A stretch of 44,781 bases of DNA, counting the filler, from Catajapyx aquilonaris (taxonomy: Eukaryota): the NCBI GenBank assembly GCA_000934665.2. It is 2 parts of 2 records of this genome, joined end to end, with 100 filler letters (N's around TTAATTAATTAA, not from the genome) between each part and the next. Parts side by side here need not be neighbours in the genome. Positions count along the whole stretch, not along the records: positions 22,328 to 44,781 come from JYFJ02005901.1; 1 more part is not named here. The stretch is one strand, 5' to 3'. The notes under the pieces are model-generated. The model was not told where the DNA came from, searched no databases, and worked only from the letters and a program-made list of their open reading frames with translations. The position numbers and the translations under genes were made by a program. Every line of letters begins with the position of its first letter. The stretch's first letter is position 1. Shown here in pieces: positions 2,839 to 41,500 of this stretch.

Positions 2839-3745
2839 CGAAAAACCCCTTTTGCTGACTCGGTGGCTGTGATGCTGGCCGCTGGACCATTCATCTCTTT
2901 CTTTCTCTCTCAGCCGCCCCCCACTCCTGAGGGCTAATGATGCCCCCACCTCCCTTCCCAAGTCTCGGGAATTAGGCTGGGGGCTCGCCCACATCACGCT
3001 CTAACTACCCCGCACAAATCCCCACACTTGGACTATTTTGTTTATCAACTCGGCATCGCTTTCTGGCCCATGCAGCCTATTTCATTTCCGCGGATTTGGC
3101 TCTATTCGCCATGTCATATATCCGGCCAGGAATGGAGATATAATGTGGACTCAATTTTCAAATTGGAAGAGAGCATAGAATGAGTGTCAAGGCGTAGGTT
3201 TCGGTTCTGTTTTATTCATGCATGAGCTTCGGTGGGGGAAAGCGACTATGGTGTGTGACACTCGTGTCAAACAATTAATAAAATCCCCATTTGCGCGTAC
3301 CGGGAGATTGTCACATTGTTAACTACAAACATGGAAAAGGTTTGTAAATGTAGGGTGTTCATTACTTTAGAGCAATGTGGAGTGTATGACCAACGACGTG
3401 CTGTCAGGGATCCAAAATGATTCCATCTCCATCCCAGCCATCCACTTCCCCCACATAACAGTAGGCGCACGACAAGAATAGCTTTGCCGCAATCATTTGG
3501 CCACCACTACCAACACCCCTTAACAATTGGTCGATCTGTCCTTCAGCTGCGAATATAGGAGTGAAGGACGTTGGGATGTCTGGGGTAGGTCGCACTGGGA
3601 TCAGCGATTTCCACTGTCGTGCGCTAATTGCACAAGACAACAAAGAGTTCTCAGAGCCCATTTTGGATCACTGACCGCACTGTGATCACCTTGCTGATGT
3701 AACTAGTACAAGCAGCCCCCTGACACGCCTATCCCAGCAGCCTTA

Positions 3746-3897
3746 AGGTGCGTTTAAATGTGGGCGATTTGATGAGCGAAGTCTTCGCCGAGGCTGAAAT
3801 TAACAATCGATTTTCGCCTGAAACAATATTGGTTACTTGGGTTTCTCAGCCTCGGCGAAGACTTCGCTCGTCAAATCGCTCACATGTAAACGCAGCT
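3746..3897. mobile_element. PIF/Harbinger-type MITE (152 bp)
   Basis: ~50-bp imperfect terminal inverted repeats (aggtgcgtttaaatgtgggcgatttgatgagcgaagtcttcgccgaggctga vs reverse complement agctgcgtttacatgtgagcgatttgacgagcgaagtcttcgccgaggctga). TTA on both flanks (3743-3745, 3898-3900) is the TWA target duplication typical of PIF/Harbinger. Confidence 0.8.
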
Positions 3898-6800
3898 TTA
3901 TGCAGACCTCCGTGAGCGAAATTCTTCCCACCTGTAGGGAGAGGGGTTGCCGCTTCGGCGCTGGTGTAGGCGCCCATGAGTAACATTTTGCGCACACTTA
4001 CACTACATGAAACTAATTTCTATATGAAAACAGTTATACTGTATACTTCAGGGTTGTTGGGCCACTTGACAGTATACTTGCTTGGTCAGAGTGAGAGCTG
4101 AGATTTGCCATGTTCAGCCATAAAAACAGTGAGAAGATCCACAAGCACGCTTCGATTACAGGGCTACACGTCACTAATAATAAGATTTGAACCAGGAAGA
4201 ACGTATGCAAGCACGGAAGGAGGGAAAGGAAGGGAGGGCTCTCTTTACGGCCAATCGTCCTGAGGAAATCCTTCCGTAACGAGCTCAAATTTATGTCTTT
4301 GCCTGGCAATCGGGAATCGGCCCAATCCCCTCCAGACAAGATGGAAATTGGCTTTGATTGGGGGATGGGGTTGAATTTTTTTTCTCTCCCCTCCCCCCCC
4401 CTCCCCCTTGCTTTTCGTCGATGGTATATGCTCAAGCTGCAGGCACGAATTGAGGATTAAGCCCTGGTATTTCCTTCCGATACATTCATCAGTTGGATTT
4501 ACAACCCCCCATCGCAAAATGTCACTATGCCGATTAGCCTCCAGGTTGTTTAAGTTTTTCCTATTTTTCCTTTTCCACCCCTCTCGGTTCGTCACCACTT
4601 TTCTACGGATTCGCCACCACTGAGAAAATGTTTCTCATTAGCCATCCACCCCCAGACTTAATTGGAACCTCTGATTCGCTCTACAAAGCAGTCTTGCTTG
4701 TTTCTCGGCGCAGCAGCTCAGCTGGAGAAGTCAAGTGCAGAACAGGGAGAAATTGTCTGCGAGGAAACATTAATTTTGGTCTGAACCCGAGGGAATTGAA
4801 GGAGAGCGCTGCCTCGGAGATTAAGCGTCAATGTACACATATCCTGGCTTCCCGCTGGAGGTAAAATGGCCCTGAATTGATTCGGGGCACCCGGTGCAGG
4901 CTAGATATTATGGAGATGACGGGGATGTTATCAACCTTAATCATCGAGCAGCAGCATCAAGTCATATCCGTGGGTGACTATCCGGGAGACATCCAAGCCC
5001 GGCCCTCCCGCCAGCTAAGTCAAGCTCAAGACAAACACATCTCTCCAACTCCTGGAGGCAGATCCGGTCTCTCCCCTTTCCCCTATCTCCATCCAACCTT
5101 GCTCCCCTAGCTGAAACCTTCACTAATCAACCCGACTCTATGAAATGCCCATCCATTAAGTCGGGCCCAGCCTGTGTACTCGACTACAACGCTTCAGCGC
5201 CCTTCATAATTACGGACCTTTCGCGGTCATGTCGCCTGAGATAGATGGAACACCCACCATCCTGTTCTATTCTACAAGACACATTTATAGATCTTAAATT
5301 CGACATGCTCATAGCCCTGAATAGGGCTGATGTGTCCATCATTTTTCGCCATTTGGTTCAGAGAAAAAAAAAACATGGAAAGAAAAATAGCACGTAGGTG
5401 TATAGGTCTGTGGGTCCTTTATCCTGGAATGGGTGCGAGCGAGATGGTAGCAGGCGGCGGGATTAATGGCGTGCCACTAATCAGTGATGGGAAGGCTCTC
5501 TTTCGGACAAACTAGAGACGGGCAAGAAATGGCCGACGTCAAGTATAGGGGAAGGGAAGGGACGGCGGGGGAAAGGAAGTTAAGGGAGCTTCTTCCATCG
5601 AGCTGCCCACTAGCCAACAAGCCCTAGCCCCATTCCGACCATTTTTCTTCTCAGACCTTCCTCACCCACGACTAATTGCTTCTTTGCAAGGAGGAAAGTG
5701 AGGGAGAGAAAGAGGAAAAAGGAACAAGACCAGGAGACTAGAAAAATGGATCCGCTCCTTCAAGCTGCTTTCCACTTTACATACAGAGTACAGGCCTGCT
5801 GCTGCTATATGAATATCGGCATTCTGGGTACTGTATGTAGGCCATTAGGTGATTCTCCTTTATATTAATGATGTTGCTATTCTACTCGGAATAAATAAAC
5901 AGCTTCCGAAATCTAAGCTTTGAGTGCACAATGTGATGTGCTTATGGCTTGACGGAACAACAGACACTATAGCAATATTACAGTACAGTACAGCTCACTG
6001 AGGACAAGAGGATGACGGTGTATTGAGGAATTATATGCCTTTAGAAAACAGGCTGTACATACATGTATGAACGAAAGATAACAGGCAGTATTGACATATT
6101 TACCTTCTATCACCTTCCATGTTTCTACTTACTTTAACACCACCACAATAGGTTTTCGCATAACACGCATATTACAGGCTTACTGCTCCCATGTGGGCCC
6201 TGCGTTCAGGCACTCCAGTTATTATTTTCACCTTGGCTAAACCACTTAACATTACCTGCCGTCACACCAGTAAGCCTATCAACACGCATTGTGCCGAAAA
6301 TAAAAAATGTCCAAAATACCCCGCACCATATTCCAAATGAAAAGGGCACAGCGCCAACGTTGGCCTATAAAACCTGACGCAAATCCTGCCTCTTGTTTGG
6401 CGACATCGATAAAATAAAACGTGTGCAGCCTAGCCCATGCTAAAGAATCTATCAAGCCATCAAGGAACGATCCCAAATCGAATCGGAGGGAAACACAGGC
6501 CCTGCATCAGCCGAGTGCAATGCGAACCAAGTGCAACCAGGCTCAAGCTAAAATCCCATACAAACTTTGCGGCCGCCCTTCCATTCCTATCTGGCGCCAT
6601 AAATGACATCGGACACCACAGTCCGCTCTCTAAATCCCGGGCATCCCCTGCTCAGTTTGCCAACACCAAATTCGCACAATTTTGCATCCTTTTTTTGTCC
6701 ACACGTTACAAAATCAATCATACATCAACTCATCAGGGCACGTTACAAGGCGCCACTCTTTCCCGTCCAATCCATAACATGGGGTGATTTTGTCCCCAGG

Positions 6801-18600: not shown

Positions 18601-19010
18601 CTTTGCACGCACTCTGCAAAACCGCTCTTTCTTTGCTGTTATAAATGCAGTGTTAGTATCTGCGAAAGTCTGGCACGCACACATTCCATCCGTCCAAATT
18701 AATATTTGGAGGAGAGCCTTGCTTCCGGCTACCAATTTACTTTCGGCGGCTTGGATTACGGATTCATTCCAACATTCAACGTCTTCTTTATTCAAAAGAT
18801 GTCATCAAGGTATACGCTACTATAGGTAATCATAGCGCTACGTTTAGGAGTAATTATCCGGCTAATTTGCAAGTATGTTGTAACGTGCCCTCACCAGATG
18901 GCCTGCGCGCGCCTGGGAACGCTCTTTTGTAGAGACAGTCGGGTTTTGGACCTGGTTCGGGCTGGTATAATAAACGGTTGCGCCGTACCCGTTGTATTAT
19001 TGTACCACAG

Positions 19011-19338
19011 TAGTTAGAAAAATCGGAGTCCCATACTTTTGGTAGGGTAACCACATCGGCGTCCCATACCTATTCGGATATAGTAGACCAGAGTCCCACG
19101 CTAGATAATCCCTCACAATATTTTAACGACTTTGACAACTTTTAACGAAAATTATCGTCTCAACGGTATAATAGTCGTTACTCTTCTTGACGTGAAATTA
19201 ACGTTAAAAATCGTGAAATTGATGTTCAAAATTTGTTAAATCATCTGGCGTGGGACTCTGGTCTACTATATCTGAATAGGTATGGGACTCCGATGTGGTT
19301 ACCGTACCAAAAGTATGGGACTCCGATTTTTCTAACTA
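19011..19338. mobile_element. MITE/foldback element with 96-bp inverted arms
   Basis: 19011-19106 vs reverse complement of 19243-19338: 92/96 identical. Each arm has three gtccca(t/c) sub-repeats around an AT-rich spacer. Superfamily not assignable. Confidence 0.8.
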
Positions 19339-20735
19339 GACCACGACCCCGAGTGACCTTTCGGGGCCAGGGGGATGACTTGAGGGGGTGAACCCTCACA
19401 ATATTTACATGGCTGCCCAATGAGAAGTTCATATTCCGGGTTGTGTACTGTTGGTCAGTTGACTATCTGACCATGTGAACATGGCGGCACTTTGGGGTAC
19501 ACCCCCATACGTGGCATGGTCTCTGATAGCTGGTCCGTTGATTTCCTTTCAGAGCGGGGGGCCATCGTGCTGCCACTAAATTGAGGATTTTGTTTGCTGC
19601 AGGTTAATGGGCCCGATCGAACCACCGGATCCACCTTTTACGAGGTCCCAACACGCCCACCTCCCAAATACGAAACCTGCAAGGCACCCCAATAGCCCAC
19701 CAGATACCCGAACGCACCTGAACACAGCAAAAAAAATAAATAACGACGCTTATTAGTGTCAAGCCCGGTCGTTCCTTCAACATTGATGGATCTGTCATAT
19801 ATACGCTGTCAAGACGCGTCATGCCGGACTCCCAATATAGGGAGCGAGGGTAGCAGTGCATTCAACTCGCACGGAATAAACGACGTGGAAGGCTAACGAC
19901 CATATCACATACAGAAGGCCCGGTTTCCCCTCGGCCAATGTCTGCTGCCACTCGGACCCCCCTCTCGTTATCAAGGCTTTTCTCCTGTTATTGACAAGGA
20001 AAGCTAAGGAAAAATGAGGACGCCCCCCCTCCCCCCTCCTCGGGTCTCAAAAGGAAGGAATCCGATTGACACTCACTGGAGCCCTGCCTTGGATAGTTAC
20101 GTACACGTTGCCTGCTTTAGAACCAACCCCCTCTTGGAACACTCCCGAGGCCACCACAAAAATGGATTTCCAACCTAATGGCCTGCAGGCTCTTCCCCCC
20201 CCCCACAGAACTTTCATTTCGCACAAAAATGGTGTCCGTAATGACGTGCCATCATCGCATTCTCGAGATGACGCGCCACTTTTTCTTCTGCCATTGCAAC
20301 TGAAACATTACCATTCGCTGCGGGTACAAACATTGTCAGCATCATATATAATCACCTGGGATCAACGTTCGCCGCCTTCTTGCAGGTGCTTTTTCGGAAT
20401 AATCCCCCGGACTTTCTAAGTTCCTCAGGGGAAAGTTCGGTGAAATGACACGAGAATGACAGCACTTTGAAGTCTGACTTTGATAGACCCTGGGTGGAAA
20501 TTGCCTAGCAGCCAGGATGAAAGGCCGTTTGGGGGGAAGCGGAACAGCCCCCAGGACTACGACATCTTTAATGATCTTTTAGGAGTCCCCGGTACTTAAC
20601 TCACCAGTGCCCAAGCATACTGATACCCAATTCCTGAAAAGTATACCAAAGAGCTTTTTGCATACAGGCTGTGATGCAGTCAAAGGAGTAGGAAAAAAGT
20701 TATTGACAGCCTGTCATTTTACCTTGTGACGCTCC

Positions 20736-20825: not shown

Positions 20826-21097
20826 CAGTGTTGGACATTAATCGCGTCGTACTGCTAGCGACATTTTTCGATGCGGCAGACGTGCAAATCGAAATGATAG
20901 AGTGCGAGCCATGGTCATAGAATACTAAGGTCTGGACACTCCCACCTATACCCTAGAGGTAGTGTACGGGGGCTGGTGCGAGCCATGCGACCCAAGGCCT
21001 ACCTTTTCTGATTCGCACGGCTCGCACTCTATCACTTCGATTTTCACGTCTGCCGCCTCGAAATATGTCGCTAGCAGTATGAAGCAATTAATGTCCA
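20826..21097. mobile_element. Tc1/mariner-type MITE, CAGTGTTGGACATTAAT family (right end truncated)
   Basis: Starts TA-CAGTGTTGGACATTAATCGC; 79-bp inverted arms 20832-20910 / 21019-21097; same terminus as copies at 23402 and 36933. Confidence 0.8.
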
Positions 21098-22227: not shown

Positions 22228-22327
22228 NNNNNNNNNNNNNNNNNNNNNNNNNNNNNNNNNNNNNNNNNNNNTTAATTAATTAANNNNNNNNNNNNNNNNN
22301 NNNNNNNNNNNNNNNNNNNNNNNNNNN
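22228..22327. other. Artificial contig-joining spacer
   Basis: Exactly 44 N + TTAATTAATTAA (22272-22283, stop codons in all six frames) + 44 N = 100 nt. Confidence 0.95.
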
Positions 22328-22482
22328 AACAGAAGGGACGAGTCTTGCCATCCCGATCCTTCGGAAGGTGAACCCGCTCTAGGGGGCCAGCCTGTGAATC
22401 ATCGTTGGACTTATTTCAATACTTTACATCAATTATTCCAGTCCATGCAATACCTAAGGTATGCCCGGGTATGCCCTACCCA

Positions 22483-27914: not shown

Positions 27915-30900
27915 TTACACCTTGGGTTTGGAGATTGCAGTGCTGGAAAGAAAGGAGGAATTAATCTCAGTTTAATCTCGTACGACTTGTTATCATGGTA
28001 CTTACAGTGTCGACTTATTGCCGCTAAGAACAATGAAGGGTGATTGCGTCTCCTTCTGCTTATGCTGCAGCAAGGTTAGGGTTCCCAATGGCGTGTCCGT
28101 CGAGCTCATCTGCTTCATCAACTGTCAGGTACGAATTCAAACGTTAGCGAAGAACAAATTTAAAACCATCCCCTCGCACGTTACGGTAACTTTCTTAGCC
28201 CATTTTTGTAAAGACGTTAAACAAAGTCAGGCAGCCACTAATCAGATTAAATGGCTACACTTTGCAACGCAATCTACCATGTAAGTGCCGCTAAGTCACG
28301 GTTAAATCTTAACTGACAGCCGAAATGGTTGGTGGAACCATGCATCAGTAATCTCCTTTTTTCCCCACTCACCATTTCTTGCTCCCGTTTCTTATGCCGC
28401 TTCTCCACCTTATTCTTCCCAGGTCCCTTCCCGTGAAACTTGTGCGAGAGGTACCGGAAAGCCTCCTTAGGGTTAAGAAGCCTTCCATCATCATCAATGT
28501 ATTCCAGCTTGACGTCCGGCTTGTAGGTATCCTTCTCCTTGAATTCAGAAGATGGTCCAGCGTAGTGTTCCCTCCTGCCGAACTTGTCGTCGTCAAAGTA
28601 AGTCTTGTCCTCAATTGAGTAGTGCTGAGCCTCCAGGTGCTTCATGCGAGTGGCAGACACGTTCTTTTTGCTCTCGCGTTCCAGGTAGCCTTTGCTCACA
28701 GCAAGACGCAGGGCTCCAGCCAGGCCCGACCCAACGTCCGGTTCTTCGTCCAGGATGGCAATTTCCTCCGATTTGATCTCCACGGGAGTCTCATCTATTT
28801 CAACCTCATTCCAAGCCCCACGGTTCGTCTCCTCTTCCATTCTAGGCGGCTTCTCTTCCACCGATTCTTTTTCAAAGTCCTGCAAAAGGGAAATTATTTC
28901 GCTAATTACTAACACAGCAGATTCCCCTTCTAACAATTCCTTCAACATTGTAGTTCCGTAACAATAAGAAATCATGAAATGCAGTTATCCCATGGTAAAT
29001 CTCTTCGCTTGAATGACTTGCGACTCAATGAGAGCAATAGCAAATTTGGATACTTATGTGAACACAAGCTGAATCTTTTTGTTTTTAAATTAGGTTCAAT
29101 AAAATTGTCGTACAAATGTGACCATCATCTCCTCTTCATCCTCCTCTCTGTTCCCTGCTAGTCCGTAGGTAGGTATGTCTCCCAGCGTCCGGCAGAATTC
29201 CGCAGTCGAGTTAAGTACGATAAAGCCTTTTCCGGCGGCAAGGGAACCGTCTTCGTCTGCTGGTTCGGCTTTTATATCTTCATCCACCTGCAAGAAAACA
29301 TTGTGATAAAGTCGGTCAATTCAAAAAGACAAAATTATATCCGCACAAACATGATTACATTACCTTCTCTATAAGAGCAGTCTTTCTCTGCTCCTTCTGC
29401 TTCATCTTCCTTGTCTTGTTGAGCGCATTTTGAAGCTCTATTTCCAGGTCATCTGGCTCCAGTTGGACTTCAGATAAGTCTTCAGTTGGGTCTGAAAGTA
29501 CAAATGCCATCACAGTCGGTAGGAAAGCTCACGGGGGGAATTTCCAAGGAAATGAAAATATTGTGCACAGGACTTACATGCAAGATCGTCTGTGTCCAAA
29601 TACTCATCCAGATCCATGGGGACTTCCAGACGCTTGCGAAAAGCAGCGGCCTCTTTCTTACCCTTCGCCAAATCCCTCTCATCGAGCCTTTTGCTTTCTA
29701 CTCCGTCCTCCTTAGCTTTCCTCGACCCCTGATCCTTTGGCGTCGTGTCGGCCATCAAGATCAGGTCATCTGCCTTCAGTACTTTCCTCTTGCGCACGAC
29801 CTTCCTTATCTGGCAGTGAAAACAATTTTTTTTTAAGATTATGGCTTCTTTTTTCCTGTCACTTTTATTGACCCCTTCAACTTACCTTCTTGGTGGGCTT
29901 CTTGAACGTCACCATTTCTTCAGGAGTGAAGTAATCAGTGGCAGGCTGAATTCCTGCTGTGTTCAAGGAGTCTTGGGTTTTCTTCTGCAGTTTAAGGCGG
30001 ATCAGTGCCACTTCTCGGTCCTTGTTGGGAGCTTCGCCAGTTCCTGAAAATGCATTACAAGCCACATATTACCTCTTCAACATTCTGCGCATTACAGTCA
30101 TTGCTTTGCATTTTCAGTGACAATATCAGTACCATTCGCACGATGCAAACTGTGGACTTACCAATGACAAAGCTGGCCTTTTTCTCGCCTTCAATCTCCT
30201 CATCATACTTGGCCAGAATCTGCTTCTTTTTGACGATACCATACTCATCCACCTCGTTCTCCTCATAGGCATTGTAGCCGTAGAGGTAGGGCTTCATCTT
30301 TTTAATCTCTGCATTCTTATCGAAACGCTCCTCATCCATAAGGTTCACGTTCACAAGCACATCCTCCCCGTCTTCCAAAACGCCTTTGTCCTTTATTGTC
30401 AGTATCACATCCCTGCCTTCCACGAATTTATCCTGAGTAAGAAAAACATGAATTAAAATTACTGGCCTGATAGTTACATAGCAGTAAGATGTCAGGATAT
30501 GCAATACACACCGTGTCATGCTGCACTCGTAGCCCAGTCAGGTCTCTGGCTCCATATGCGAAGTTCTTTTCTCGCTGGAACTCCGACTGCACAAGGTCGC
30601 CCACTCCGAATTCAGCGTCAAGCTCCTCCAGTGCCTTGGCCCGCTGCTCGGCTTTCTCCTTCTCCTGCTGTATCCGTCGGGTTCGTTCAACCCAGGCTGC
30701 TGCATTGTCAACTTCCGGATCCTCCGTCGCAGCCAAGGTCTTCACCTTGGAGAGCTTGGCTTCCACCCGGCGCTTCTCCCTGCGCTCTTCCAACCTCTCC
30801 CGTATGGCCTGGGTGCGCTTCACGTCCGAGATGTTCTCAGGGGGCTTGTGCACAAAGTCCTTGTCTGCAGACTTGGATTCTTCTGCCCCTCCTTCCTGCT

Positions 30901-33215
30901 TGGGACCATCTGAGTCCAGCTGGAGGGGCTTTAGGCCCAGTTTTGCTCGTAAGCGGTTTGTCTCGTTGATCGACAGCGACAAGGTGCTTCCACCCCCACT
31001 GTTGTTCTCTACTGGCGAGTCCGATCGGATGCGAGGCGGAGGCGGGGCCTGTGGTAGCCTCTCCAGCTTCGGCATATCAATTTCACCATCTGGGAGAGAT
31101 ATATGCAAAGTTAGTTGCAGTACTGAGGTGTTGACAACAGAAGAACACACAGAAAACCGCATTCTTCCTAGCCATGTAACCGCTCCTCAGTTATTCCTTC
31201 CTAACGCTTGCTCGGTTTTCTTTCAAACATTTTCAGAGACAAGGTGTGTCTAACAATCTCATAAGGCAGGAGAACAAAAACATTAATAGCAATTTAAAAA
31301 ACTAGGGCCCCTAGTACAAACTTCAACAGAACTTTCAGTTTAATCATTTTTTTCCATGAAGGGTAGTTCTGGGCTGCATTCACAAACGGATGTGGTGCAA
31401 GTGAGTTAGGAGACATTCTTGTACCTATCAGCAAATTCCACAGCATTCATTTACATCCTCGCATGAAACATGCCGAGATGACACCAAAAAATACACGTGG
31501 AGAACAGGCCCGGAAAAATTTCTCGTTTCCATTTACCCGTTTCTCTCGTACAAGTTCATACAAGGTGTCCCAGAAGGAACTCACATTCCTGTTGGTGAAG
31601 ACATGCTTCCAACTAAAGTGAGTATCCCGCTTGAAGCGCCAGGGCTCCCCCATACCAAGTTGTTGGCGTCTGGAGCAACCCTAGCACAGAAGTGCCAAGT
31701 GAGGCATGAGAATGAGATTTTCACTGACATGGACCAACTCAATTTTGGGACACCCTGAAATATAAAAAACTAATAATTTCCCTGTGCTTGAGTTTCTGGT
31801 CAAACCAAATGACTGTACATCCTACAGGATATCAAACTTTCCAGGTTATAATTTAGTCCCACATCTCAAAAAATAATCAAAGCAGCTGCTGAAGTATGAA
31901 GATGGATCGTTCACGTATTTCACATCCCGCGCACAGGATCTGAGACCTACTGGGTGCTCCTTTTGTTTTTCTTGAAGAAATGATTCGCTCATAATTCCAA
32001 CAATGAAGTCCCACTATCAGACTATAGTTATAAATTTTAAAACAATACCAATCTTTCGATATACAACGATACAGGATGATGTACTTTCGAAGAAGCGCTG
32101 GGAACTGTGTGACTAGACATTAATCGAAGAAAGGAGGGACTTTCAAAACTACCAAAACCATTTTGTTTGCATCCAAAGAGGTTCTCTTTCTTGCTCTGCA
32201 ATTAATTCTCCCCACTTCTATTGGCAAACACACCCTGCTATCATTTCTTGATGCCTGTATACCTTGTTGGAAATTTCAGCCAGAATTACTCACAATGATT
32301 CAAAGAACTCACACACACAGGAAAACTTCAGTCGAACTTCCCTAAGTCGAAGAAAATTATGTGCTTGGTTGGTCACAATGTAAAATAATAAGAAATAAAC
32401 TTCCCTAAAGGCTGTTTCACGAGGTCGCGATTCCGCCCACTGCTGCGGTTGCGACTGGCGATTCGCGTCCGCCAGCAATTCACGAAAAAAGTAATCACAG
32501 GAAAAGAAGGGCCAGTGCCAACTCCACTTGCTACACAATGCTATTGTGTACTCAATGGGAGGTACACGAATACGTGCACCAATTGTTGACACCATTGAAG
32601 GAAGTAATAAATGACACAGCTGGTCACATGGGTGATTTAATTTTCCTCCCAGGTATTCTTTTAGGAAGGGGCCTCAACACAAAATGATGGGAGTGAATAA
32701 CAGGTAATTAACTGCATGGACAATAACATGGAATGGCACTGGAGGTCTATGGTCGCCATTTTCCACAGCAGCTGCGTATCGATCGCTAGGCACGCGATTC
32801 TCAAAACGCCAACTCGCGATTCAAGATCGCGCAGTGGGCGGGTCCCTCGTCTCGCATCCGCTCCGCTAGCCGGCAACAGATCGCCTCGTGAAACAGCCTT
32901 AACTCTTGGGGAAGGTGCGGTGGCTGAGATGGTAATGTCTCGGCTTGCTGTGCGAAAGGTCCCGGGTTCTATTCCCCGCCCAGGAGTTTACCTCTCGCCT
33001 GCGACAGTGGGTCTCTGGCCCGCGACTAAGGAGGCGTCTTGGCAACCGGCATCCTTTTCCGACATTGCACTTGCACCTGTGTCCCCTCCCAAATTCCCCC
33101 ATCGTTACCCTACTTCCCTAATTGCCCTTTCACAGAGTTTGAAGAAAGATTGGAAAATCAGTCAAAATGGTGGTATTCCACCCCCCCTAAAAGGGCTTCG
33201 TTCCTTCCAATGGGG

Positions 33216-33295
<80 letters not shown>

Positions 33296-35062
33296 CAGCT
33301 TCCCTAACTCGAATTTATATAACTCGAAGGGCTGGCAGGGCCTTACGATGGGATATCAATGCATTTTCAGTCTCCCTAAGTCCAAGTTCATGTTGGCGAG
33401 TACGAAAAATGTTATCATTTCCTAGCCGCAGGGTCGAGAGTAGGCCACATGCACAGAAAGGCTCTTTCCTGATCTCCGTCTACCAGTAATGACTCATGCC
33501 ATCCGTGCCAGGTCCCGATCTAAGAGTAGGCAAATGTCCATAACAGAGTTTTTATTACAACCAACAACGAGGAACATTGTCGCATGATAGCGAGTTATTT
33601 TTAAGCTTTGAACACCTTTTGTCGCTGGATATAGAAGTAGGCTTCCTTATAGAGTTCTGTGCTTAAAAAAGCCAAAACGTCTCTAACTCATTCCAGTCCC
33701 ACGGAGATTCGACTTATGGGAGTTATACTGGATATGGAAATTTTAGTATTTGGGTCTATAAGAAGCGCCCTGTAATAAGTACAGGTAGTGGGCACGAGTT
33801 ACATCCTGTAATACCCTTTACCCCAATGGCTCCTTGATAAGGCGAGTGATTTCTGGAACACAATGGCACAATTATCCGAACATGGTTGTAATACACTGTA
33901 AAGTGTGGAGGCGAACACGTGTCAAAATTCAAGCACTCCTTTATGTAAGTGCTAGTTATCTTGATGTGACACATCTGCCTCCACACAAACTTGTAATATA
34001 AAAAAATGCATCCTTAAAAAAGACTGACCATGGTACCCTAACAGAATCATATGAAATTAAATTTGTAATGAAACACCGACCATACTTCCATATGAACTCC
34101 CCAGATGTATAAACCGCCTCAGGACACGTAATTCATATTTCACGTAATACACCGGACATGTCCAGAGTTAAATCTGGCGACAGTATTGCAATTACTCACA
34201 TTGTTAAGAAATGAATGTGAAAGTATTCTTCTGCAAAATAGCTACTCTTCAAATCATCTGACTAATTAATCATATTCATTGCAATAAAAGATACTTTTCG
34301 GCCCCCTCGGAAAACAAGCACTTTGAAATAAGTACATCAAACTGCCGCTGGGTAAAATCAGCACAATAAATGAATCATGCTCGCAAACAAAAATCGCACA
34401 CTCGGCTTGGGGCAGACAAGTAGTCCCACTCATCAACAATAGCTTACCATGTCCTTAACAGCAGGCGAGGACAAGTTCAGGGCCAGCCTTCACCTGGAAA
34501 AAGGAACAAGAAAATCAGGCAGACTTTTTTTTTCCTCCACAGTTTTTGGTAACCAGCACACACAATTATTCTCATGACGAATCTGGCGAAATATATTACT
34601 TGGGCCATAACAACCGCCATAAATCATGGGTGCTGACTGTTACACTTCTAACCTACACTTATAATACGTAGCGTACCATGGTCAGTCTCCCCCAAAATAT
34701 TACTACGAGGAACAGCCACGATGGCAAGTGCTCTTGCAGCGAAGTCTTTCACTTGACTACTCAGCGGTACTGATCGCCACACTATTGACATTTAGTATTA
34801 CTATTATCTGGGCGACACGGTGGCCGAGTGGTTAGCGCCGCAGCCTTCCAGCTCTAAGGTCCCGAGTTCGATCCTCGGGTCGGACGGAGGATACTTATGT
34901 GGATAGAGTTTCGATGGGTTCTCTCCGTGTTCGCGTGGGTTTTCTCGGGGTTCTCCCGTTTCCTCCCACTATCAAAATCCATCACATTACAGGCAAATGA
35001 TTAAAGTCTGTCTATTAAAAGATGATCCCCTAAGAGGCCCAAGGGGCCTATCACGGGGTATC

Positions 35063-35128
<66 letters not shown>

Positions 35129-35629
35129 TGCACATGAAGTAAGTGTGCATTTTTTTTGAGGAATGATCGAGTGACTTGAGAGAAACATTTTTTTGCCAAT
35201 TTGCTGTTGCAGACTCATCGTTCAAGTCATACAACGAGGATTTGTCACGAGTCATACAAACCCTAAGTAACCACAGTAATACCACGGTAACCATTTTGCC
35301 ATCCTGCCTGTTCCGCATTTTATAAAGAGTACGAAGCGCGGAAACGCACCTTCCAAGTCGATGACCTCCTCCTTGGAGTGCGTCTTCCTTTCAGACCCGT
35401 GGTCCTGATGGGAATCCTTCCTCCTGCTGGAGGTGCTCTCCTTCTCAGCAGCCCCTCTGTGCTTCTTATGGTGATGCCTTCCATCTCTGTCCCTGTCCCC
35501 TCCTCCTCCTCTATCGTCCCTCCGTCCTTCCCCGCCCCTTTCAACCCCCTTCACCTTCTCCCTAGACCTGGACCTGGACCGGTGACGCTTCTTCTTCTTC
35601 TCCTCCTTATGCTTCTTAGACGAACCCAT
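27915..35629 (-). CDS. SART1: U4/U6.U5 tri-snRNP-associated protein 1 (SART1/Snu66), ~820 aa
   Basis: Exons 35629-35350, 31089-30512, 30432-30162, 30043-29886, 29809-29578, 29491-29364, 29287-29123, 28879-28373, 28121-28006, 27942-27915; frame consistent. MGSSKKHK start with RS-like region, HIND motif [66 protein letters not shown] on the minus strand at 27817-27812. Confidence 0.95.
31561..31757. mobile_element. Degenerate mariner/Tc1-type MITE in SART1 intron 1
   Basis: TA-caaggtgtcccagaa ... ttttgggacaccctg (reverse complement cagggtgtcccaaaa, 13/15); right TA not preserved. Confidence 0.55.
32409..32899. mobile_element. PIF/Harbinger-type MITE (491 bp)
   Basis: Perfect 16-bp TIR AGGCTGTTTCACGAGG...CCTCGTGAAACAGCCT with TAA on both flanks (32406-32408, 32900-32902); internal inverted ccgcccactgc/gcagtgggcgg. 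Confidence 0.85.
32908..33295 (+). mobile_element. tRNA-derived SINE with (TAA)n tail
   Basis: Pol III A box tggctgagatgg (32921-32932), B box ggttctattcc (32965-32975), ~300-nt body, (TAA)n tail 33218-33292, reconstructable 12-bp TSD cttccctaactc. Confidence 0.8.
34448..34493 (-). other. Putative 46-nt poison cassette exon of SART1
   Basis: Minus strand: ctgattttcttgttcctttttccag | gtgaaggctggccctga...ggacatg | gtaagc. Joined to exon 1 (phase 1) it reads G-E-G-W-P-stop. Confidence 0.6.
34810..35123 (+). mobile_element. tRNA-derived V-domain SINE with (TTA)n tail
   Basis: A box tggccgagtgg (34821-34831), B box gttcgatcc (~34866-34874). Central ttctctccgtgttcgcgtgggttttctcggggttctcccgtttcctcccac resembles the V-SINE core. 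Tail 35064-35123. Confidence 0.85.
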
Positions 35630-36035: not shown

Positions 36036-36932
36036 TTGTTCCATCATCCTTCCTATATATTTTTTAAAAAACCTATTTAATTTAACATCAATGCTCATAA
36101 CCATATTTAAATATAATCCGCACTAAAGGCATTTATTCCAGTGCTTTTAAACCCCCCCCCCTCCCCCCTCCCAGCACACATCCTGCCCTCCCTCCTTTTT
36201 TTTATCCCCCTTTTTTTTTCCAGTGCACCCCCGGAGCCTCCATTGCAAAATTCCGGGGATCGGTCCACCAGAAGTGTCCCTCCCGCCTCCAGAGTGTCCA
36301 GGGCATTCTCCAGTCGGACACCCGCCACAACAGGTCCCACAAGCTCCGGGTAAGGCTAAAGGGAAAAGATTGGGAGGGGGGAAGGGGTGGAGCCGCGCCG
36401 GAGAGAACGGGGGGGGTGATGTATTCCAAAAAAGGGGAAGCTCAGGAGGAGGAACGCCCTTTCGGTGCGTTTGCGAGGGCAAGACACCCCAGGGGCAGTT
36501 GGCCCCCTCGAAATTAGTTGGGTTAGAACACTTTGTGCTGAGGAGGAGAGGGGGGGATTCGGCCTTGGAAGGGTTCGGTTTAATATTGAGGTGAAGGCCA
36601 TTGTTGCACTTTGCCATTGTGACATGTCAATAGTTTGTTGATGGGGTTTGAAGGCTGCTGTGGGGTACCAGCCTCATTGCAATTATTATTGAAGGGTACG
36701 CAGTATGGACAGAGCGACACTGGAGAACAGCGGAATAAATAGTAGGCTAATAATGCATTAAATAATAACAATGAAATAAATATAATAAAATAACAGCACT
36801 AATAAATAGCTCATAGATAATAATATGAATTACAGGGATCTGTACTTACGAACGGGCTCCCAAGGCTCCCCGGAACAAGGGGTAAGTCACTGGGCTGATG
36901 AGCGTACAACAGACTTGGCGCCTTATGCTGTA

Positions 36933-37145
36933 CAGTGTTGGACATTAATCGCATCATACTGCTAGCGACATTTTTCGAATCGACAGAAGAACGAATCTTG
37001 CTCGCATGGCTTGCACTATATAGTAATAATTTGTTTTATTTTATTATTATTATTATATGGCTTGCACTATCCATTGCTTCGATTTGTTCGTCTGCCGCTT
37101 CAGAAAATGTCACTAACGGTATGACACGATTAATGTCTAATACTG
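36933..37145. mobile_element. Tc1/mariner-type MITE, CAGTGTTGGACATTAAT family
   Basis: TA-cagtgttggacattaatcgcatcatactgctagcgacatttttcg ... cgattaatgtctaatactg; homologous to 20826-21097. Confidence 0.8.
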
Positions 37146-37202
37146 TGCAACAGACATGACGAGTGATTTACCCCTTGCCCCAGATGGATAATTTTATAAT
37201 TA

Positions 37203-38587: not shown

Positions 38588-41500
38588 ATGGCAGCCAGCG
38601 ACACTGCAGGAGACGACTCCCTGTACCCAATTGCAGTCTTGATTGATGAGCTACGAAATGAGGATGTTCAGGTAAAAAGTCATGCTGAATTTATAATTGC
38701 TCCTCCTTTCCTTGTTTGGAATTACCCATGGCACTGATTATGACTTGATGTTGAATTGCATCTCCACAGCTGAGACTCAACTCCATCAAGAAGCTGTCGA
38801 CCATCGCACTGGCGCTGGGAGTGGAGCGCACCCGCACAGAACTCATCCCGTTTCTGACAGACACAATTTATGATGAGGATGAGGTTCTTTTGGCATTGGC
38901 TGAACAGCTCGGCAACTTCACAGCACTTGTCGGAGGATCAGATTATGTTCACTGCCTCCTGGTGAGTAGTTTCACTCCCGAGTTTGTAGGAACTTTTTTT
39001 GTACAAATGGCAGGAAAACTCAAGCCACTTTCATTTTTGCAGCCTCCCCTTGAGTCCTTGGCCACAGTGGAGGAGACAGTCGTCCGTGACAAGGCAGTGG
39101 ACTCCCTCCGTGCCATCTCCAACCAGCACAGCACTGCCGACCTGGAAGGCCATTTTGTTCCACTGGTTAAGCGGCTGGCGTCTGGGGATTGGTTCACCTC
39201 TCGGACATCTGCTTGCGGATTGTTCGGCGTCTGCTACGTCCGCGTATCGGCTGCGGTGAAGAGCGAGCTGAGAAACCACTTCCGCAACCTCTGCCAGGAT
39301 GACACGCCCATGGTTCGCAGAGCGGCTGCCTCCAAGCTCGGGGAATTTGCAAAGGTCGTGGAGGTGGAATACCTGAAGTCAGACCTCATCCCCATGTTTG
39401 TCAATCTGGCGCAGGATGAGCAGGTCAGTGCTGCAACTTCTGGTTGTAGTAAACCAATTTGCATTGCTGCTGTTTGGTTTTGCTTATCTCGGCACTTGTA
39501 CTTTGCAGGACTCTGTGCGCCTCCTGGCAGTGGAGGCATGTGTGAACATAGCCTCTCTGCTGCAGCAAGAGGACGTGGAGCAGCTGGTGATGCCCACTCT
39601 CCGTTTATGCACAGAAGACAAGTCATGGCGGGTTCGCTACATGGTGGCAGACAAGTTCACGGAGATACAGAAGGCAGTAGGAGCAGAAATAACTAAGACC
39701 GACCTGGTGCCTGTCTTCCAATCCCTGCTGAAGGACTGTGAAGCGGAGGTGCGGGCGGCAGCAGCGCACAAGGTAATTTTCTGCTGCATATGCTTTCTCC
39801 ATGTGTGAGACGCGTGTGACATTGATTGTGTTCCTGCAGGTGCGAGACTTCTGTCAGGGGCTGGAGACGAGTGTGCAAGAATCTGTCATCATGAACAACA
39901 TACTCCCCTGCGTCAAGGAACTGGTGGCCGACCCCAACCAACACGTCAAGTCCGCCCTGGCCTCCGTCATAATGGGACTCTCTCCCATACTTGGCAAGCA
40001 CAAGTATGTAGCAAGGTTGCTGGAGTATGGAGAATGCGGATGGAGTTTACGAAATTGGATCTTTCTTCCGCAGCACTGTGGAACATCTGCTCCCCTTGTT
40101 CCTGTCCCAGCTGAAGGACGAGTGTCCGGAGGTGCGCCTAAACATCATTTCCAATCTGGATTGTGTCAATGAGGTCATTGGGATCCAGCAGGTAAGGTGT
40201 ATTGACTGGAAGATGTGCAGATGATTTCTCTTCTAGTGCTGTCTGACTCTGCCTTGACTTTTCATCCCTCGATTCTTGATACTAGTGCGGACAGAAAGAT
40301 CGTGGAACATTGCAGGGGGATTAACTTTTTAAGACAGGCAGCATTTAGGGCCCCGCGACCCATGTGCACCGGTGCTTCCCGTGACAAAAGGACCTCAGGA
40401 TTTATGCATTTGTCTTCTCGCAATGAAAATCTTTGAAGTTTTTACAACATGATTGTAAATTTAATTAATTTTTGGCCGCCTTTAGGTCTAATCAATCTGC
40501 AATCCCCCCCTTTTTTTTCTCACTCATGGAAATAAGTTCAGTAGTGAATTATTATTACAAGTGCAGGAGAGGCAAATTGTGGGATTCTGACATGTTTTCA
40601 TTGCAATGCTTTCTATCCACCTGTTAAATCTGAGCAGTTGTGTTATTTGTGAGTTTGTCACATTTGCAATCGAGTGTACCTGAGTATGGGGAAAATTAGA
40701 TTACAGCAAAGTAATGTGTGTATTAGCAATGCAGGCTAGTGTTCCTTTCTGGAAATCACTTGCTGTCCGCAGTAACATCGCTTCCATACGTACATCATGT
40801 GTTACTGTACTCAACGGTTGGAAGTAATAACGTTAACGTCTAGTTCCTTCTTCCTGTTAAAGGTATCGTCCATTGCCAATTTATATGTTGATTTGTGATA
40901 TAAAGTGCTCTTACCTTGACTTTTATGCTAAAGACCAAGCGCTGTTGAGACATGGTTGTGACGACATTTAGGTTCGACTCAGTCACTGTGTCACTGGTAC
41001 TGGTCTCTAGGCTCATCAACATATTGTCACGCCTCGCTGATAAAAAATGAGTATTTAATGGCTGAACGGCTACAAAATGTAACTGAATTTACATGAAGTT
41101 AGTTTCATCTGCAAGGCAGTTAATGATTGGCAGTGGACGTCAGTAAGACTAGGTGTAACATTTTGACGTATGTGCAATTAATTAATTGTTAAATATTCAG
41201 TGCTAATGTTGAAGTTATGTCTAGGTGTCATCGAGCAGGAGCAAAAATCACACCATTTTTTGTTTCTTATCATTTGCTGTTTCTCACCTTTTCTTCTTTT
41301 TTTCCCCATTACATACCTATGTGGGTGTAACAATTGTCATATGAGCATCGTGTAATTTAGAAACAGCATGATCTCTGAAGGAACGAACATTGGACACCAG
41401 CATTACATCGGGTTGGCGCAATCATTAAGATTGCGGAAGGCTTATGTTACACCTACACGGCTACACCATCCACTTCTTTCTGCTTTTTTCTTATTATTTT

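Follow-up and report, generated by a model that had tools for sequence, protein, structure and literature searches.

A predicted strand-biased helix around an exon-like unit in the first intron of SART1 of Catajapyx aquilonaris

The window analysed here is a stretch of 44,781 nucleotides, filler included, from Catajapyx aquilonaris (GenBank assembly GCA_000934665.2), in which positions 22,328 to 44,781 come from record JYFJ02005901.1. Its minus strand carries an orthologue of SART1, and the long first intron of this gene holds two 20-nt segments that are complementary to each other and lie on either side of a short exon-like unit. A sequence-only reading of this stretch had proposed that the two segments form a helix of about 29 bp on the SART1 pre-mRNA, by virtue of G-U pairs that are A-C mismatches on the plus strand, and that this helix loops out a poison exon. 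Here we describe the locus and weigh this proposal, which we favour tentatively, against other explanations of the same features.

The identity of the gene rests on several comparisons. Exon 2 matches the human U4/U6.U5 tri-snRNP (small nuclear ribonucleoprotein)-associated protein 1 with E = 7.7e-34; in Pfam, exon 2 matches HIND and SART-1, and a later exon matches SART-1; and three arthropod SART1 proteins, used as tblastn queries, delimit seven coding blocks from 31072 to 28008. These results agree with the earlier placement of SART1 on the minus strand and of the inverted repeat within an intron, which we find to be intron 1. The first exons and the intron between them are the following.

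35350-35629, minus strand: coding part of SART1 exon 1; the ATG is at 35629, and the exon ends in phase 1 at AAG/GTGCGT.
31090-35349, minus strand: SART1 intron 1, 4260 nt, with the donor G at 35349 and the acceptor G at 31090; it holds the repeat.
30512-31089, minus strand: SART1 exon 2, which encodes the HIND motif and the first part of the SART-1 domain, preceded by CTAAC...TCTCTCCCAG.

When exon 1 is joined to exon 2, the reading frame remains open across the junction. The remaining gaps between the SART1 coding blocks are roughly 40-370 nt, and intron 1 is the only long intron. The best related SART1 proteins in a large collection are 44-52% identical and belong to insects and crustaceans, those of fishes being close behind; when the exon 2 protein was compared with metagenome contigs, 411 pattern stretches matched and none was confirmed. 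In the cockroach SART1, the predicted isoforms X2-X5 depart from X1 exactly at the position of the exon 1/exon 2 boundary, three of them with alternative short N-termini and one beginning at a downstream methionine (P0002-P0005, P0097). Another arthropod thus makes alternative use of 5' exons at the corresponding position, which suggests the presence of alternative exons in the orthologous intron.

A repeat search of the window recovered the two arms, 34021-34040 (AGACTGACCATGGTACCCTA) and 34669-34688 (TAGCGTACCATGGTCAGTCT), as an inverted pair of 20 nt that is complementary at 19 of its 20 positions (95%), as near-perfect as had been read, with a spacer of 628 nt between them. At the sole mismatch, C faces C on the plus strand and G faces G on the minus strand. 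The parts of the helix that these arms are predicted to form on the pre-mRNA are listed in the order of transcription.

34669-34697, minus strand: 5' (upstream) arm in the transcript; core 34669-34688 and G/U-rich extension 34689-34697 (RNA 5'-UUUUGGGGG).
34041-34668, minus strand: loop closed by the helix, 628 nt, single copy in the DNA contigs.
34012-34040, minus strand: 3' (downstream) arm in the transcript; core 34021-34040 and extension 34012-34020 (RNA UUUUUAAGG-3').

The arms are infrequent sequences in the window. Their 16-nt core occurs at two sites only, with up to two mismatches allowed, for an expected count of 0.02, and two matches were reached in 0 of 100 shuffles. A scan of the window for 20-nt inverted repeats, in which no more than one mismatch and gaps of 30-3000 nt were allowed, gave four loci that are not of low complexity; the 34021/34669 pair is the only long-range one, and the remaining three (3764-3879, 19010-19339 and 20850-21079) are short-spacer hairpins. 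Any such repeat was present in 5 of 300 dinucleotide-preserving shuffles of the window, and analytically 0.008 of them would be expected per window and 0.0005 within the intron; from the shuffles and the analytic estimate, the chance of the core repeat is 0.008-0.017 per window. The inverted similarity ends sharply at 20 nt on both sides of the arms, and an 8-nt palindrome, ACCATGGT, is present in each arm. Beyond the arms, 56 of 200 shuffles score equal to or higher than the inward similarity and 12 of 200 than the outward one, and a longer, decayed inverted duplication was rejected on these counts. The splitting of a 20-nt palindrome by an insertion that duplicated the 8 bp ACCATGGT is not favoured either, as it needs an equally improbable starting palindrome, and it is further weakened by the supposed element ends, which agree at only five of six positions.

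The extension of the helix differs between the strands. On the minus strand, all nine positions of 34012-34020/34689-34697 are pairable, with seven G-U and two A-U pairs, and on the plus strand seven of the nine are A-C, as the sequence-only reading had stated. RNAduplex predicts 27 pairs for the minus strand (19 Watson-Crick in the core, with 2 A-U and 6 G-U) and one G-G mismatch. The pairable stretch does reach 34012/34697; the helix is, however, nearer 27 bp than the 29 bp proposed, because the outermost U-G stays open in this prediction. With the extension included, the duplex energy is -40.4 kcal/mol on the minus strand and -31.6 kcal/mol on the plus strand, where the duplex is weaker because of the seven A-C positions; for the core alone the values are -33.6 and -30.9 kcal/mol, respectively. 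Pairing is thus predicted to favour the sense strand.

A similar trend was observed when the arms were folded within their context. In sense-strand folds of 731 nt and 1101 nt, the core pairs had probabilities of 0.9-1.0 and the extension pairs of 0.5-0.97, while in the plus-strand folds the pair probability of the extension was about 0. Forcing the upstream arm to remain unpaired cost 27.1 kcal/mol of ensemble free energy, and 27 of the 29 helix positions are paired when the 4361-nt intron context is folded to minimum energy. With regard to how often such an extension would be met, a nine-position stretch taken in a fixed register is pairable throughout in 5533 of 17,937,545 cases on the minus strand (3.1e-4) and in 3677 of 17,937,545 on the plus strand (2.0e-4), and within the unique part of the intron the corresponding rates are 2.4e-4 and 1.05e-4. 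Given this low empirical frequency, the extension is not trivial. The sense strand is G+T-rich around the repeat. The whole-intron minimum-energy fold also contains a 17-bp long-range helix elsewhere in intron 1 (32884-32900/32408-32424, minus strand).

The loop closed by the helix encloses a candidate exon with its own splice signals.

34494-34518, minus strand: acceptor signals of the unit, with a branch-like CTGAT at 34518-34514, 17 pyrimidines in 19 positions and CAG (G at 34494), followed by GTGAAG.
34448-34493, minus strand: candidate exon-like unit of 46 nt, which could be a poison cassette, a cryptic recursive-splice exon or a pseudo-exon.
34442-34447, minus strand: donor of the unit, GTAAGC, in the context ATG/GTAAGC, matching the consensus at seven of nine positions.
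34194-34199, minus strand: second donor-like site, GTGAGT, matching at eight of nine positions; its use would give a 294-nt unit, still within the loop.

The branch-point consensus is CTRAY. The complementary arms lie wholly in the sequence on either side of the unit (34493-34448): the upstream arm is 174 nt 5' of the acceptor AG, and the downstream arm begins 407 nt past the donor G at 34447. The unit carries stop codons in all three frames, and when it is placed in silico after exon 1, which ends in phase 1, it reads G-E-G-W-P-stop, with a TGA at codon 99. Its acceptor tract, with 17 pyrimidines in 19 positions, exceeds those of the six real SART1 acceptors scored (11-14 of 19), and its donor (seven of nine) falls among those of six real SART1 donors (five to nine of nine). 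At that threshold, this is the sole acceptor-donor pair in intron 1. The acceptor has a further peculiarity. Of the 25 acceptor-like sites of the window that have 17 or more pyrimidines in 19 positions, only 1 is directly followed by GTRA, namely the site at 34494/34493; among the 531 sites that have 12 or more, 5 are. These observations sustain part of the claim that the loop contains a cassette exon, in that a 46-nt exon-like unit that would bring a stop at codon 99 is enclosed, but its use as a poison exon was an assumption of that claim. A literature search found no title or abstract in which SART1 is paired with 'poison exon' or 'unproductive splicing'.

Searching the whole window against Rfam gave no match at the gathering score. 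A sub-threshold match to snoU30 within the loop (34194-34283, minus strand; 20.9 bits against a cutoff of 45, E = 0.64) has a short terminal stem and no D box that is clear by eye, and was rejected as probably due to chance.

The copy number of the locus was assessed with contigs of three DNA runs from one sample (X1, X2 and X3) and of a run of unknown kind (X5), which were compared with 33320-35045 at a likeness of at least 80%. In each of X1, X2 and X3, the segment 33784-34769 is represented by one contig of 1189 nt (33647-34835, with 1-3 differing letters), at depths of 32.2, 17.9 and 38.3, respectively, which is the range of the other unique contigs listed; the only exception to single-contig depth is the 58-nt bin 34538-34595, which has a small extra piece. 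From this single-contig depth, both arms and the whole loop are single copy, with the limit that a family sharing only the 20-nt ends would escape the contig and window tests. At position 34607, in the loop and outside both the arms and the unit, all three DNA runs have G and the window has A. Summed depths over 33320-33783 and 34770-35045 range from 1e3 to 6e5, with thousands of contigs, and the contigs of run X5 fall only on these multicopy flanks. The helix and the exon-like unit are therefore held in a unique island of 986 nt with the following sequences at its sides.

33217-33783, no strand assigned: left flank, with an (AAT)n run at 33217-33304 and then a multicopy repeat body from 33320 to about 33783.
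34770-35123, no strand assigned: right flank, with a multicopy body, a sharp boundary at 34809/34810 and then an (ATT)n run at 35056-35123.

The two microsatellite runs are in inverted orientation in the same intron, and in the whole-intron fold the corresponding (AUU)n and (AAU)n runs are predicted to form a 60-bp duplex, entirely of A-U pairs, within which the helix is nested. When intron 1 was compared with the window, 42 matches were obtained, all of them between microsatellite runs; by this comparison, the two multicopy flanks show no similarity to each other or to other parts of the window, and the A-U duplex is the only inverted pair that they form.

Other features of the window lie outside this intron. 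Foldback-like or MITE-like (miniature inverted-repeat transposable element) repeats with short spacers are present at 19011-19338, 20832-21097, 36926-37152 and 3740-3903, with arms of 58-99 nt that are 79-95% complementary, and an N run at about 22228-22320 is flanked by TTAATTAA-type sequence. An open frame on the plus strand (38755-39693), with HEAT and PPP2R1A-like HEAT repeats, lies some 3 kb away from the start of SART1 and forms a head-to-head gene pair with it.

The inclusion of an exon with a stop codon is a means by which many splicing factors keep their own abundance in check, and such exons have been shown in mammals to be tuned by long-range RNA pairing. On this background, the predicted helix may loop out a cryptic or poison exon and so keep the stop-carrying unit from the mRNA. 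Once the downstream arm, 407 nt past the donor of the unit, has been transcribed, the two arms would pair; this pairing would draw the outer parts of intron 1 together and set the enclosed splice sites aside, and exon 1 would then be joined directly to exon 2, leaving the stop-carrying piece out of the mRNA. This piece could be a poison exon under regulation, or no more than a cryptic or recursive exon that is dangerous when used. We infer from the sequence and its predicted folding that the helix would form in vivo, that the spliceosome would recognize the unit and that pairing would influence its use. Taken as a whole, we consider this loop-out a possible explanation of the locus, somewhat short of an even chance.

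Several considerations weigh against it. The extension consists of five consecutive G-U pairs, a G5 facing a U5, together with its few other positions; it is thermodynamically weak and effectively a single coincidence. Units of this kind are not rare: the window has nine acceptors with a donor within 25-300 nt per 89.6 kb of strand sequence, which gives an expected number of about 0.4 per intron of 4260 nt and about 0.06 per loop of 628 nt. Over the 604 windows of this genome, with 0.008-0.017 repeats per window, several core repeats of this quality (5-10) are expected by chance. Transcription passes the unit and its two splice sites about 400 nt ahead of the downstream arm, and exon definition could precede folding. 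The features that support the loop-out were recognized post hoc. Additionally, in a study in human cells, antisense oligonucleotides directed at several supported complementary pairs had no apparent effect on splicing (PMC10573301).

The alternative is a neutral origin, in which a fortuitous or mutational inverted repeat in a transposon-laden intron, which may or may not fold, was never under selection for a role and encloses, by accident, a pseudo-exon without any use. We regard this as a serious contender, plausible although clearly less than evenly probable. The repeat could have arisen as a template-switch copy or be the last trace of a dead low-copy element, and the chance cores expected genome-wide, the occurrence of exon-like units of such strength about once per 10 kb of strand, the sharp end of the inverted similarity at 20 nt on both sides and the 8-nt palindrome within each arm are all consistent with it; the G+T-rich sense strand would raise G-U pairing without selection. 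It is harder to reconcile with the combination of features, since the core repeat, the sense-only 9-nt extension (about 3e-4) and the enclosure of the only strong unit of the intron are jointly well below one expected event genome-wide, and random sequence would not be expected, at the frequencies given above, to have a GTRA after the intron's strongest acceptor. The single-copy state of the locus likewise speaks against pure chance. A net stabilization of 27 kcal/mol would probably be enough for the helix to fold and to affect nearby splice sites, even in the absence of any past selection.

The juxtaposed acceptor and donor of the unit suggest a different role, since on its sequence the acceptor resembles a ratchet point and the unit could equally be a recursive-splice exon. 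The long intron would then be removed in two steps: exon 1 would first join at 34493, and the regenerated AAG/GTGAAG would compete with the GTAAGC located 46 nt downstream, the helix being incidental or choosing between one-step and two-step removal. The acceptor CAG, with 17 pyrimidines in 19 positions, runs directly into GTGAAG (CAG/GTGAAG); as the last letters of exon 1 are AAG, a first splice to 34493 would restore a donor with seven of nine consensus positions. This arrangement is found at only one of the strong acceptor-like sites of the window, and the competing donor 46 nt downstream fits the cryptic recursive-splice exon model set out for Drosophila (PMC8605326). However, the recursive sites of flies are characteristic of very long introns, mostly of more than 40 kb (PMC6110457), and intron 1 has only 4.26 kb; moreover, the site is 856 nt from exon 1, away from the midpoint, and positions +5 and +6 of the regenerated donor are off consensus. 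We consider recursive splicing unlikely.

A more elaborate possibility, which we regard as quite improbable, combines both ideas into a timing device through which SART1, the protein that recruits the tri-snRNP to the spliceosome, would sense its own activity by a race between helix formation and splicing in intron 1. If tri-snRNP recruitment were fast, the unit would be spliced in before the helix closes and the mRNA would be destroyed; if it were slow, the helix would close first, the unit would be looped out and a productive mRNA would result. If true, this would give a core component of the spliceosome a homeostatic loop timed by RNA structure, in which the anatomy of a recursive exon is joined to a loop-out helix.

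The least probable explanation, to which we give very little credence, is that a DNA transposon or MITE of about 668 bp, Kolobok-like in type, has the arms as its terminal inverted repeats and the loop as its interior: the size, the sharp 20-bp terminal repeats (19 of 20 complementary), the other transposon-like hairpins of the window and a TTAA 4 nt outside the left arm resemble such an element, but arms and interior lie on a single contig at single-copy depth in all three DNA runs, the window has no second copy of the arm, the right side lacks a TTAA, and an insertion whose arms are still 95% intact would be young, with sister copies that should be visible. A target-site duplication is also absent, given that 17 x 17 (289) boundary offsets and lengths of 2-11 nt gave only matches of 2-3 nt and a low-complexity AAAA. 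Kolobok and piggyBac were rejected for the TTAA missing at the right-hand end, and the arm pattern had no match among metagenome contigs. A multicopy transposon had been named by the sequence-only reading as a finding that would overturn it, and these results speak against one, a family with only the 20-nt ends in common excepted.

The loop-out of the unit would, if true, extend the logic of structure-tuned poison exons to a core tri-snRNP protein and to an invertebrate, and with its 20-nt arms and 628-nt loop the locus would be a compact test case for the timing of folding relative to splicing. If the helix is not functional, the locus would serve as a calibration, indicating that a unique, strand-biased helix of -40 kcal/mol around a strong exon-like unit can be meaningless.

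Among known systems, the locus can be compared with MITEs. These elements have short, sharp terminal inverted repeats around a few hundred non-coding base pairs, and the locus likewise has short, sharp inverted repeats that bound a few hundred non-coding bases in an intron; it differs in having no target-site duplication, no other copy at a likeness of at least 80% and no similarity within the window. With the ratchet points of Drosophila it shares the juxtaposed acceptor and donor (YnCAG/GTGAAG), a short downstream cryptic exon with its own donor, and an exon whose inclusion would be harmful and is normally suppressed. In contrast, its intron is only 4.26 kb long, the site is off the midpoint, the regenerated donor reaches only seven of nine positions, and a flanking long-range helix is outside the anatomy described there.

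The nearest counterparts are the complementary regions that control exons in human genes. Pairs of conserved complementary regions (PCCRs) in the flanking introns control the inclusion of the poison exons BRD2 exon 3b and BRD3 exon 5b (PMC10789245); PMC10573301 adds the complementary pairs of PHF20L1 and CASK, with the tested PHF20L1 pair quoted at -23.6, and backs this type of control with transcriptome-wide structure data. The human pairs were defined by conservation and tested with minigenes and antisense oligonucleotides, whereas the present pair is defined by sequence and folding; it also differs in its invertebrate host, in belonging to the gene of a tri-snRNP protein and in enclosing an acceptor that is also ratchet-point-like. 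As in the BRD2 and BRD3 type, complementary segments lie in the sequence flanking a short stop-carrying exon or exon-like unit, and they are predicted to form a stable duplex, here of -33.6 to -40.4 kcal/mol against the -23.6 quoted for PHF20L1. The proposed effect is likewise on the rate of exon inclusion and through it on unproductive splicing, for which a dependence on the timing of transcription and folding is to be expected. In its position and its predicted thermodynamics, the locus corresponds to a loop-out complementary pair, and if the loop-out is real, it is a further member of the known class in which complementary regions loop out an exon, from a gene and a lineage for which no such case is known to have been described.

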